A DNA stretch of 63,380 bases, counting the filler, from Collodictyon triciliatum (Eukaryota): NCBI GenBank assembly GCA_043381765.1. It is 3 parts of 3 records of this genome, joined end to end, with 100 filler letters (N's around TTAATTAATTAA, not from the genome) between each part and the next. Parts side by side here need not be neighbours in the genome. Positions count along the whole stretch, not along the records: positions 21,510 to 41,560 come from JBHJMP010000336.1; 2 more parts are not named here. One strand, written 5' to 3'. Made by a program: the position numbers and the translations under genes. Below are positions 24,701 to 30,700 of this stretch, one piece after another. Under the pieces are notes generated by a model. That model did no database searches. It saw only the letters and a list, made by a program, of their open reading frames with translations, and was not told the origin of the DNA. Positions within the stretch are counted from its first letter, which is position 1; every line of letters begins with the position of its first letter.

Positions 24701-27700
24701 CTTTTTTTTTTTTTAGCACAACTATCTGAAGGATGGTCCGTATATATCTGCGGAAGAAGCCGTCGCAGTCTACACTACTTTTGTGCATTGGCTTGAAAGC
24801 AGAAAATTCTCTCCGATTCCTTTCCCCCCGCCCTCCTACAAACATGATACCAAGCTCCTTATCCTCGCATTGGAAAATCTCAAGGAGGCATTCAGTGTGA
24901 AGTCGCGCCTGAACCAGAACCAGCGCGAAGAATTGGGTCTCATCGAACAGGCTTACGACAACCCCCACGAAGCACTGGCCCGAATTAAACGCCACTTGCT
25001 AACTCATCGTAACTTCAAGGAGTGCGGCATTGAGTTTATGGACCTTTACAGCCACACAATTCCTGTAAGACTCTTCCCATTTACTTTCTTTAGTACCCGT
25101 GTTCCTTTTTTTTTTCTTTTCTCACTTGGCCACTGCATGTTATTCGTCACTCTCCCATCGTTTCTTAATTCATTAGCGAGTCAAACTAGACATATTCCCA
25201 AACTCTCTCATACGATCTAGGTGTACGACGTCGAGCCGCTAGAGAAAATCACCGACGCTTATTTGGACCAATATCTTTGGTATGAGGCCTCTAAACGCCA
25301 CCTCTTCCCCAACTGGGTCAAACCTGCAGACTCAGAGCCACCACCGCTTCTTGTTTACAAGTGGTGCCAGGGAATCAACAACCTGCACGATATCTGGGAC
25401 ACATCCAAGGGTGAATGTGTGGTCATGTTCCAGTCGCGATTTGACAAAATTTACGAAAAGATAGACCTGACAGTGCTCAATCGCTTGCTGCGCTTGATTG
25501 TTGACCACAACATCGCGGATTACATGACAGCCAAGAACAATATCGTTATCAATTACAAGGATATGAACCACACCAACTCTTACGGAATCATCCGCGGTCT
25601 GCAATTTGCATCCTTCATTATCCAGTTCTACGGCCTTATTCTTGACCTGCTGCTTCTGGGACTCACCCGCGCCTCCGATATTGCTGGGCCTCCAACCCTG
25701 CCTAACGACTATTTAACCTTCAAGAACATCAAGACCGAGGCGCAGCACCCCATCCGCATGTATACTCGTTATGTCGACAAGCTCTACATCGTGTTCCGAT
25801 TCACTGCCGACGAAGCTAAAGACCTCATCCAGCAATTCCTCACGGAACACCCCGACCCGAACAACGAGAACATCGTGGGCTACAACAACAAAAAGTGCTG
25901 GCCGAGAGACTGCCGCATGCGCCTCATGAAGCATGATGTCAATCTTGGACGAGCTGTCTTCTGGAACATGGGCAACAGACTCCCCCGGTCCATCACCAGC
26001 TTCGAGTGGGAGAGCACCTTCGTCTCTGTCTACAGCAAAGATAACCCCAACCTCCTGTTTGACATGTCCGGATTTGAGGTTCGCATTCTGCCCAAAGTTC
26101 GAATGCTTAGAGAGGAGTTTTCGACAGTAGAGGCTGTTTGGAACCTGCAGAATGAATCCTCCAAAGAAAACACTGCCATCGCATTTCTGCGTGTAAGTGT
26201 GAAATCTCTAAAGAAGTTTGAGAACCGTGTCCGACAGATCCTCATGGCTTCTGGGTCAACCACTTTCACAAAAATTGTCAACAAATGGAACACTGCGCTG
26301 ATTGGGCTGATGACATACTTCCGCGAAGCTTCTGTTGCCACATCCGAACTGCTCGATCTGTTAGTCAAATGTGAAAACAAGATTCAGACACGTGTCAAGA
26401 TCGGACTCAACTCCAAGATGCCCAGCCGCTTCCCACCCGTCGTCTTTTACACACCCAAGGAACTGGGAGGCCTCGGAATGCTTTCCATGGGCCATGTACT
26501 CATTCCACAGTCGGACATGAAGTGGTCGAAGCAAACGGAAACAGGAATCACCCACTTCCGCTCCGGCATGTCGCATGAGGAAAACCAACTAATTCCCAAT
26601 CTGCATCGCTATATCCAACCGTGGGAGTCAGAATTCATTGATTCACAGCGTGTGTGGCACGAGTATGCTGCGAAGAAAGCAGAGGCAACAGCCCAGAACC
26701 GTCGCCTCACCCTGGAGGATTTGGAAGACTCGTGGGACCGTGGTATTCCTCGCATCAATACCCTGTTCCAGAAGGACCGCCAGACACTCGCCTATGACAA
26801 GGGATGGCGTGTGAGGATTCACTTCAAGCAGTATCAGGTCTTGAAGCAGAACCCGTTCTGGTGGACACATCAGCGCCACGACGGAAAACTGTGGAATCTG
26901 AATAACTACAGAACCGACATGATCCAAGTAAATGCCTCTGATACGAAAATATTACCTAATCTCACGCTTATACAAATTTAAGTGCATTAGACTATTTTAA
27001 TATTTTTTCGCTGAAAAAGAAGAGAACGGTACTTTCGATTCCATTATCTCACAAACCAAACTATCCTTTACTCTCAAGGCCCTTGGAGGAGTCGAGGGAA
27101 TTCTTGAGCATACACTCTTCAAGGGAACTTACTTCCCGACATGGGAAGGTCTGTTCTGGGAGAAGGCCTCCGGATTTGAAGAGTCGATGAAATTCAAGAA
27201 GCTAACCAACGCTCAGCGCTCTGGTCTGAATCAAATTCCGAACAGAAGATTCACCCTCTGGTGGTCTCCAACAATCAATCGGTGTGTTCATCATCAGATA
27301 ATAATCATGTGTTTACATGATAGCTTAATCATCTCCCTCTGTCTCTCATTTTTTTTTTCCCCTAACACGAATATTTTTCGACACAGCGCCAACGTGTATG
27401 TCGGCTTCCAGGTGCAGCTTGACTTGACGGGCATCTTCATGCACGGCAAGATTCCCACCCTCAAGATTTCTTTGATTCAGATCTTCCGTGCTCACTTGTG
27501 GCAGAAAGTCCACGAGAGCGTTGTGATGGACTTGTGCTTCGCACGAGGTACAAAAATCCTTTTGGCCGATGGCACCACAAAGAACGTCGAACACTTGGCT
27601 ATTGGCGACCAACTTATTGGCGACGACAGCCAGGCGCGTGACATTGTTGTGACGACCCACGGCCACGGACCATTGTATCGCATATCTTGGGAGGAGGAGC

Positions 27701-30700
27701 AACAGAAATATGCATCTATCGACCCTCACAACTTCGTCTGCAATGACCGACACATTCTTGTCCTCAGGACACCAAACATGCCCCGCATGGCAGTGAGCGA
27801 GTCGCATTTCACTGTCGAGTTCCCTGTGTTATCCGAGGACGGCCCACTTGAACACAATTTGTCTATCAACAAGAGGTTATTTGCATGGGGTGACGCTACT
27901 AGCGGAGCAGAGTTTTCTAATCAGCAACAAGCATATGATGCTGCAAAGCAGTTCGAGACCAAGTACACCAACTTTACTTGGGAGGTATCTGCGAAGCAGT
28001 TTGCTGAATTCCGTGTAAGGAATCCGCAGGTCTCAAGAGAATGCTTCCTCTACCGTACCCACATCACAGAGTTCCCTTGCGCTGACCCTGTTGACTTGGA
28101 AACCCACATCCTCAAAGCAGTTCCTACTCTGAACCCAACAACCATTCAAGAGTCGAGATTACTAGAGAAGTCATCATGGCTGTTGGGTGCTTATCTCGCT
28201 GACTCTCTATCACAAGACAGCCACGCTGCCGCTCCTGTGAAGCGAATGTATGAGACCGTCTATACGATACACTCTGAAGTTTATCCTGGGTTTTCAGCCT
28301 CTGTCAAGTGCGAAAAGGAACAGGCAAGCATCGAGACAGTCTCGCAGTTGCTGAGAGGAAAATCGATCTACGAGAACTACTCGCTTGTACCAAACCTACT
28401 GAAGTCTATTGGTCTCGCACCAGTCGAGAAGGCAAAGGAGTGCGATTTCGCCAAACTCGTTACTCTACCTCTATGCCTGCGGGAAAATCTGTTGTCTGGA
28501 TTCATGGACATGGCGGCAGCTACCCTTGCAACTGTTGTGGAAAAGAACCGCATTACTATTGTCATGGAACACACACAACAGGACTTGGCTGCCTTCCTCC
28601 TTTCCCTTGTCCGCTCGCTCGGTGTTTGTGGCGCAGCCAAGGTGGCTGAAGGAGCTGGAGGTATCCTCAAGATTCAACTTGAGCTGACCGGCTCGACTCT
28701 AAAGAGACTCATCGAAGAATCGATCATGGGTGCATTCGAGGCCTTCGCGCGCTGCAGCACCAAATCCAAGACCAACGAGCTATGTCTTCCATTTGAAATC
28801 AAGCCATGTGGCGAGGGAGAATTCTATGGCTTCCAGCTCCACGGGAACAACAGTCGGTTCTTGCTGGGCAGTCATGTTATTTCCCACAACTGCCAGGTCT
28901 TTGACCAGGAGCTTGACGCTCTGGAAATCGAAACTGTGCGCAAGGAAACCATCCACCCTCGAAAGTCATACAAGATGAACAGTTCCTGTGCCGATATCAC
29001 CTTGTTTGCGGCTTACAAGTGGCAGGTTTCCAAGCCCTCGCTGCTCAGCGATACCAAGGATACCTTTGACGCCCAAACCACAAACAAGTACTGGATTGAT
29101 GTTCAGCTACGCTGGGGAGACTTTGACTCCCACGACGTGGAGCGATACGGCCGAGCCAAGTTCCTAGACTACACCACAGACACCATGTCTATCTACCCAT
29201 CGCCGACCGGAACACTGATTGCCATCGACATGGCATATAATCTGTACTCTGCATTCGGAAACTGGTTCCCTGGCTCCAAGCCGCTCATCAACCAGGCCAT
29301 GGCAAAGATTATGAAGGCGAACCCTGCTCTCTACGTGCTCCGCGAGCGTGTGCGGAAGGCACTTCAGCTCTACTCCTCCGAGCCCACAGAGCCGTACCTG
29401 TCATCCCAAAACTACGGAGAGCTCTTCAGCTCCCAGATTATCTGGTTTGTGGACGACACCAACGTGTATCGCGTGACCATCCACAAGACGTTCGAGGGTA
29501 ACTTGACCACGAAGCCCATGAACGGAGCCATCTTTATCTTCAATCCCCGCACCGGCCATCTGTACCTAAAGATCATCCACACGTCGGTGTGGGCTGGGCA
29601 GAAGCGCCTGGGGCAGCTGGCAAAGTGGAAGACTGCGGAGGAAGTTGCTGCGCTGATTCGTTCACTCCCTGTTGAGGAGCAGCCGAAGCAAATCATTGTC
29701 ACCCGTAAAGGAATGTTGGATCCGCTGGAGGTGCACTTGCTGGACTTCCCCAACATCGTGATCAAGGGCTCCGAACTGCAGCTGCCGTTCCAGGCCTGCC
29801 TCAAGATTGAAAAGTTTGGAGACCTCATCGTGAAGGCGACAGAGCCGCAGAACTTGCTGTTCAACATCTACGATGATTGGCTCAAGACAATCTCGTCGTA
29901 CATCGCATTCAACCGCCTCATCCTGATTCTCCGCGCGCTGCACGTCAACAACGAGAGAGCCAAGATTATCCTGCGTCCAGACAAGTCGGTCAAGACGGAG
30001 TACCACCACGTGTGGCCGACGCTGACGGACGACCAGTGGATCCAGACGGAAACGAACCTGAAGGACCTGATTATGCAGGACTTTGGCAAAAAGAACAACG
30101 TCAACATCGCGTCGCTGACGCAGTCCGAAATCCGCGACATCATTCTCGGGGCGCAGATTGCACCGCCGTCTCTGCAGCGGCAGCAGATTGCCGAGATCGA
30201 GAAGCAGAACCGCGAGCAGAGCCAGCTGACGGCAGTGACCACGTCGACCACAAACATCTTTGGGGACCGCATCAACGTGGCGACCACAAGCCAGTACGAG
30301 CAGCAGACGTTCTCGTCCAAGACGGACTGGCGCGTGCGCGCAATCTCGTCGACAAACCTGCACCAGCGCACACACAACATCTACGTGACCTCGGACGACG
30401 TCAAGGACGGCGGCTTTGCCTACGTGCTGCCCAAAAACATCCTCAAGAAGTTCATCTGCATCTCGGACCTGCGCACGCAGATCTCGGGCCTGCTGTACGG
30501 CTGCAGCCCGGCCGACAACCCGCTGGTCAAGGAGATCCGCGCCCTGGTCCTCCCGCCGCAGCTGGGCACGCACCAGGCCGTCACGCTGCCGACGTCTGCG
30601 CCCGAGCACGAGTATCTGCAGGATCTGGAGCCGCTCGGCTGGATCCACACGCAGCCCCACGAGCTGCCGCAGCTGTCGCCCACAGACGTCATCAACCACA

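Follow-up and report, generated by a model that had tools for sequence, protein, structure and literature searches.

A predicted class 1 intein with a decayed endonuclease domain at site d of PRP8 in Collodictyon triciliatum

In the 63,380 nt window of Collodictyon triciliatum DNA analysed here (the whole stretch, made of three joined parts of assembly GCA_043381765.1), the middle part carries the spliceosomal gene PRP8, interrupted at positions 27535..28890 (+) by an in-frame intein of 452 aa. The visible part of the gene (21710..31125, +) comprises 11 exons and 10 GT..AG introns, with 2685 codons including the intein and the stop. The gene model was derived by tblastn against other PRP8 proteins, and its 11 exons join into a single open frame in which Pfam identifies the PROCN, RRM_4, U5_2, U6, domain IV, JAB and PROCT domains. 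Runs of N at 21410–21509 and 41561–41660, with a central TTAATTAATTAA linker, are artificial joins; the PRP8 contig is therefore about 20 kb long. It begins after the first of these linkers, and the N-terminal ~90 residues of the protein lie outside it. RNA contigs extend upstream of 21709 into sequence absent from the window. As these contigs run past 21709 and the PRP8 N-terminus is missing, a further intein may lie in that part of the protein.

The insert consists of 452 codons without a stop, begins CFARGT and finishes VISHN, and is flanked in one open frame by HESVVMDL on the N side and CQVFDQELD on the C side. None of 20,000 base shuffles of 27535–28890 was stop-free. Site a (27166..27171, +; junction 27168/27169), which holds 83 inserts across the PRP8 proteins fetched, is empty here, as is the site b position, EAWR/CWKA. 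Between site a and the insert lies a spliceosomal intron of 105 nt (27282..27386, +), the joint of which is present in RNA runs X1, X2 and X4. It is in frame and stop-free, and is therefore concealed within the long open reading frame. Once it is removed, the distance from site a to the insert is exactly 87 residues, as the earlier note on this DNA had given it. The +1 Cys of the C-extein (28891..28893, +) is equivalent to human Cys1594 and yeast Prp8 Cys1666, and presumably lies near the start of the Prp8 endonuclease-like domain.

The Pfam family Hom_end_hint (PF05203) covers intein residues 1–451 (E 6.6e-25); the score is 88.9 bits, where the cut-off is 32.1, and answers the profile check proposed earlier. 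PI-SceI, the Saccharomyces cerevisiae VMA1 intein (PDB 1dfa, 1vde, 1jva), is the best solved relative and aligns from first to last residue (1–452, E 2.2e-14). It is of near-equal length, with matching domain order, but differs in its host gene, in having both catalytic acids and in cutting DNA. An AlphaFold model built from a 6-sequence alignment (mean predicted local distance difference test score, pLDDT, 67.5) returned PI-SceI as the top hit in a fold search (E 1.2e-17, template modelling score 0.58), followed by Cryptococcus Prp8 inteins. The pLDDT is 85–94 across most of the Hint ends and below 50 in parts of the middle. Pfam, the model and the fold search agree that the Hint domain is split around a middle region.

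The N-terminal Hint part (27535..27780, +), with blocks A and B, aligns to PI-SceI and 23 other PRP8 inteins and has a pLDDT of 90–94 over residues 1–50; it contains Cys1 (27535–27537, +), Asn70 (27742–27744, +) and the block B His73 (27751–27753, +). The C-terminal Hint part (28777..28890, +; pLDDT 85–92 over residues 421–452), with blocks F and G, ends in His451-Asn452 (28885–28890, +) and is likewise delimited by the PI-SceI and PRP8 intein alignments. The 6-sequence alignment shows no variation at Cys1, His73, His451 or Asn452, and together with the +1 Cys these make up the class 1 residue set. The host protein is conserved, and most of its homologues have no insert at site d. On this sequence evidence the insert is a real intein in PRP8. 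The intein, its terminal residues and its blocks A, B, F and G, all read from the sequence in the earlier note, hold against the frame, profile and alignment data.

That note was silent on the middle of the intein, where a PI-SceI-type DNA-recognition region and a decayed LAGLIDADG domain were found. The former, an insertion in the Hint domain with the family WEVS motif (27781..28134, +), is defined by the PI-SceI and PRP8 intein alignments and is taken here to be DNA-recognition-region-like. The latter (28147..28719, +) is supported by profile score, Atlas look-alikes and low pLDDT. It scores 28.8 bits against a profile built from the 9 of 23 PRP8 inteins that have both catalytic acids, compared with 1.1 for the reversed sequence and 6.8 for the best of 500 shuffles. 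Look-alikes of the middle domain in the Atlas are LAGLIDADG_3 clusters at 0.93, which is a lead only, and a Pfam search of the intein gave no LAGLIDADG family match. The model falls below a pLDDT of 50 at residues 227–282, 328–340 and 386–413 of this part.

The two LAGLIDADG helices, blocks C and E, are recognisable as remnants, as is block H. Alignments with PI-SceI and with the relatives place Asp223 (28201–28203, +), in the block C remnant (28177..28206, +), as the retained equivalent of PI-SceI Asp218; both flanking glycines are gone. In the block E remnant (28489..28518, +) the equivalent of Asp326 is Ala327 (28513–28515, +). Asp218 and Asp326 of PI-SceI are described as critical for activity in the available text of PMC1508164. 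Against 16 other site-d inteins, the two Hint parts have a mean identity of 33–34% and the two middle parts one of 20% and 18%, whereas one of the 16, P0010, with an intact nuclease, keeps 26–28% in these middle parts. The endonuclease part of the C. triciliatum intein therefore looks inactive, as judged from its motifs.

At fourfold-degenerate sites the intein has a GC content of 94/216 (0.435), compared with 74/127 in the flanks (150 codons on either side; p 0.010, Fisher test). All seven extein segments are higher, at 0.52–0.90. This fits relaxed codon selection or an outside origin. Within PRP8 the fourfold-site GC also climbs, from about 0.55 to 0.90 toward the 3' end (29900–31125).

The insertion point had earlier been given, tentatively, as PRP8-b. 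Monier et al. (2013; PMC3749507), in the sections available, define site d as lying 87 residues downstream of a, with a 563-aa Bathycoccus intein; site b, which they report from Batrachochytrium and Capsaspora, is on the upstream side of a. When projected on the extein of the window, the Batrachochytrium inserts map to EAWR/CWKA and to site a, and a Capsaspora insert maps to EAWR/CWKA; neither has an insert at VMDL/CQVF. The 87-residue distance and these mappings together indicate that the intein occupies site d (VMDL/CQVF), and site b was rejected on the same grounds. That label does have a printed source. One sentence of PMC10710043, in the section on intragenomic mobility of the text available, equates site b with VMDL/CQVF; judged by the paper that defined the sites and by the sequences from Batrachochytrium and Capsaspora, the b and d motifs look swapped there. 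Whichever letter applies, the VMDL/CQVF position is already published, and a new insertion site was rejected for that reason.

Among 120 long proteins listed, 12 have an insert at site d, as do five of the 150 listed in a second set (one of the five partial); in most fetched PRP8 proteins the site is empty (68 by strict motif). At least 16 other public proteins carry complete site-d inteins, from fungi, green algae, an oomycete-like record and Anaeramoeba. Given a described site with this many occupants, and an endonuclease that looks inactive, the importance first attached to the find was overrated. The splicing mechanism and the site are already known; what is new and divergent is the allele. 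Its probable novelty, also claimed earlier, holds among the records searched: the intein is 19–26% identical to all 16 in alignment, and its best relatives reach 27–29% by BLASTP. The scores of the best site-d matches are roughly equalled by inteins at two other PRP8 positions.

The 16 fall into two sets by their first residues. The CL-start set (n=10) includes P0188, A. ignava, the oomycete-like record and a record clustering with Chloropicon, among others; mean identity within it is 40%, with clade support of 100/99. The CF-start set (n=6) consists of Dispira simplex, D. parvispora, Tieghemiomyces, Entrophospora, A. flamelloides and P0010. Together with the C. triciliatum intein, the CF set has a mean identity of 28% and forms no supported clade. 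Both catalytic acids are kept in 7/16 of these inteins, but in only one of the six CF-type ones.

The Bathycoccus intein of Monier et al. (2013; PMC3749507), as far as the accessible text describes it, shares with that of C. triciliatum the insertion point 87 residues past site a, the Cys...His-Asn/Cys termini and the Hint plus LAGLIDADG layout. It is 563 aa long with intact nuclease blocks, compared with 452 aa and a decayed nuclease here. P0188, a 562-aa insert at VMDx/CQVF in a prasinophyte-like PRP8, is inferred to be this allele; it is 20% identical to the C. triciliatum intein and belongs to the 10-member clade (100/99) that excludes it. The PRP8 inteins of Anaeramoeba flamelloides and A. 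ignava (Gallot-Lavallee et al., 2023; PMC10710043, seen in part) are also at VMDL/CQVF and are 21–22% identical to it. That of A. flamelloides has a CF start, like the one studied here, has lost both acids and pairs with its own site-b intein in a Hint-only tree, whereas the A. ignava copy is in the Bathycoccus-type clade. The best matches (27–29% by BLASTP) are inteins of 444–454 aa at the same site in Dispira simplex (KAJ1654027.1), D. parvispora, Tieghemiomyces parasiticus and Entrophospora candida (CAG8489846.1). These have a CF start and a decayed nuclease; their hosts are fungi, each with several PRP8 inteins, and the inserts are unpublished. The Cryptococcus Prp8 mini-inteins (PDB 6mx6, 6mwy; Green et al., 2019; PMC6805012, in the text available) share the Hint fold and the host protein, but are at site a and lack a nuclease domain.

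In all four trees the C. triciliatum intein falls outside the 10-member, Bathycoccus-type (CL) clade. Forcing it into that clade gave p 0.034 in the approximately unbiased (AU) test, for a group named after the tree was seen and with a long branch involved; forcing all 17 site-d inteins into one clade gave a borderline AU p of 0.0497. The trees after the first, among them the mixture-model and AU trees, used 35 of its 74 rows, with the partial P0121 and the metagenome loci left out. Kinship with the Dispira group was considered and rejected: it has weak support in quick trees, is gone under the mixture model and is likely to result from long-branch attraction. The tree position and the AU results make a second invasion of site d plausible. 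Put more broadly, the intein is placed outside the Bathycoccus-type lineage, and may be either a second invader or a fast-evolving old offshoot.

No relative more than 29% identical was found in three protein searches or in a metagenome scan, and a near-length protein search gave one match among the 8000 candidates scored, at 23% identity. An exact-match scan of metagenomes for the junctions gave 17 loci, of which eight are PRP8 site-d junctions, all of CL type, and nine are chance matches; no CF-start site-d locus was among them. Viral contigs yielded nothing by protein search or junction pattern. Two inserts stood out in passing. L010 is a short (226-aa) CL-type site-d intein, apparently without a nuclease. 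P0002 carries a related intein at GPYRSGK/C, inside a P-loop presumably of guanylate-binding-protein or atlastin type; this intein and the P0010 PRP8 intein may come from one eukaryote.

In the phylogeny of the host protein, the extein has no supported sister, whether in a FastTree of 115 rows or in a mixture-model tree of 38 rows. In these trees each protein was projected on the extein of the window and only later columns were used; the named proteins include no Diphyllatea sequence. The best identity of the extein to a fetched PRP8 is 83%, to an animal cluster, and as sampled it lies outside fungi, holozoans, green plants, stramenopiles, rhizarians, alveolates and the cryptophyte clade. Literature searches, made largely outside subscription journals, found no intein report from the Diphylleia group: PMC4779616 contains the word intein only in its reference list, and PMC8393795 is, from the part available, a review of organellar introns.

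The RNA evidence comes from public sequencing runs. Part of the window is held by 20 of the 23 runs listed, none with half its words or more, and the habitats named are freshwater, lake and aquaculture. Four runs were aligned, two of RNA, one guessed to be RNA and one guessed to be DNA; X1, X2 and X4 form the RNA set. Of the 10 PRP8 introns, eight have a spliced joint in these runs, whereas none of the 11 joints listed skips the insert, and there is RNA depth inside the intein in all three. Bridging of a junction was judged by a 31-letter rule, and an X2 contig with 27 letters on the intein side was discounted; an X4 contig (28743–29152) bridges the 3' junction with 148 letters of intein and 262 of extein. 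The insert is near-identical in the four independent runs. A spliceosomal intron was rejected, since precise excision would leave ends of TG..AC, GC..CT, CT..TG or TT..GC, and not GT-AG, GC-AG or AT-AC. Residue-changing variants make up four of the seven listed in the intein and three of the 11 extein variants of X4 (one a stop); they come from single low-depth contigs and were not used. Two C>T changes in an X4 contig, at 26866 and 26871, lie 5 nt apart in a conserved stretch, and one generates a stop codon; these are most likely amplification errors.

The most probable explanation (probability about 0.8) is a class 1 intein that splices in cis, is built like PI-SceI/VMA and has long been resident at PRP8 site d, where it would by now be a passenger in the decay stage with an inactive nuclease. 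The precursor would be translated whole, intein included, and splicing would follow the four-step class 1 chemistry, which is established and would here use Cys1, the +1 Cys and Asn452. Cys1 would perform the N-S shift, aided by Asn70 and His73; the +1 Cys would take over the N-extein; His451 would aid cyclisation of Asn452; and the exteins would be joined to give normal Prp8. Prp8 is an essential protein. Failure of splicing would therefore be lethal, and selection would keep the Hint parts. The motifs suggest that, with the second catalytic acid lost, empty alleles would no longer be cut and homing would have ceased; the intein would then be in the decay stage and vertically inherited. A homing cycle with such a decay stage is described in the accessible part of PMC1508164.

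Several points weigh against this explanation. The sole contig to bridge a junction is from X4, the run whose RNA status is only guessed, and no piece among those listed bridges the 5' junction. Retention in mRNA, put forward earlier for checking, is thus favoured, though incompletely, by the lack of a skipping joint, by depth in three RNA runs and by one bridged 3' junction. Some of the RNA coverage may come from DNA. The searches yielded neither an empty allele nor a close relative by which the intein could be dated. The middle domain is nearly full length with its block C acid retained, which neutral decay alone need not preserve.

One alternative is that the intein is kept as a regulatory switch, with metals or oxidation slowing its splicing and so pausing Prp8 under stress, and with the dead nuclease retained for folding or sensing. 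The Cryptococcus Prp8 intein is inhibited by copper and zinc, and a stress-sensing role has been proposed for it (PMC6805012, available in part). The intein described here has 11 cysteines, and its nearly full-length middle domain would also suit such a role. The present data nevertheless give no sign of conditional splicing, the need to excise fully explains retention, site d is empty in most of the fetched PRP8 proteins, and nuclease decay is frequent in related inteins. A switch is thus unlikely. Somewhat less likely again is an element that is still mobile, with a divergent endonuclease that cuts or nicks empty PRP8 alleles so that homing continues. The intact frame, the recognisable blocks C, E and H and the block C Asp would favour this. 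Against it, Ala replaces the second of two acids that PMC1508164, in the text available, calls critical, the motif glycines are gone, and the searches found none of the close relatives that recent spread would leave. Lastly, removal of the segment at the RNA level, an assembly artefact or a pseudogene insert is very improbable: the RNA support does come from short contigs alone, with DNA in the libraries possible, and an in-frame GT..AG pair exists at 27534–28871, but its use would strand FHVISHN inside an invariant motif, precise excision lacks spliceosomal ends, the 452 stop-free codons retain every splicing residue, the insert recurs near-identically in four independent runs, and 16 other proteins have homologous inserts at the identical codon.

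Nuclear inteins are rare and patchy, and a record from a deep-branching freshwater protist therefore extends the range of their hosts, perhaps into a group without a reported intein. The intein allele itself appears to be without a prior record, on the searches made. A more specific proposal is that it is the first nuclear intein recorded for CRuMs, and derives from an independent second colonisation of PRP8 site d, one unconnected with the mobile Bathycoccus-type allele and in which only early-diverging fungi and A. flamelloides would share. This is tentative, and is judged rather more likely to be wrong than right; if true, the intein would be a remnant of ancient movement of inteins among eukaryotes only very distantly related. 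In the site-d set a single codon holds two or more sequence types, a finding relevant to whether allelic inteins have a common origin.

A larger gap lies in the published catalogue of PRP8 intein sites, which appears incomplete. In the fetched proteins (P0004–P0282), inserts of the form Cys...Asn with Cys, Ser or Thr as the next residue occur at 21 different positions of PRP8. Those at 17 positions pass both Hint profiles; the other four look like different intein types. Published sites number eight, seven in PMC6805012 and one in PMC10710043, as far as the text of each was available. Dispira simplex P0164 has at least seven PRP8 inserts, and several Coemansia and Kickxella records have four to five or more. 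No paper on these multi-insert records was found, and supplements may list some; nothing relevant was found on PRP8 inteins in Zoopagomycota or Dispira, and the matches listed for Coemansia, Kickxell and Glomeromyc were only general intein or homing-endonuclease papers. One of the 21 positions, PTINR/S, is occupied in 17 fetched records, mostly of Coemansia and Kickxella. The last intron of the C. triciliatum gene, at 27282–27386, lies 1 nt before it; with 10 introns and 21 sites such adjacency has a 9% probability by chance, which is not significant, and Ala occupies the +1 position in this gene.

Elsewhere in the window are genes taken to encode an Arp3-like protein (5400–7040, -), an asparagine-synthetase-like protein (10460–10830, +) and a soluble-adenylate-cyclase-like ATPase with tetratricopeptide repeats (15150–21120, -). 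Downstream of PRP8 is a gene piece at 42280–43320 (+) with a Pfam CN-hydrolase match, presumably an NAD synthetase. It is followed by what appear to be a leucine-rich repeat protein (49000–50400, +), a Kelch/BTB-like protein (55575–59650, +) and the start of a long interspersed nuclear element endonuclease (63030–63380, +).

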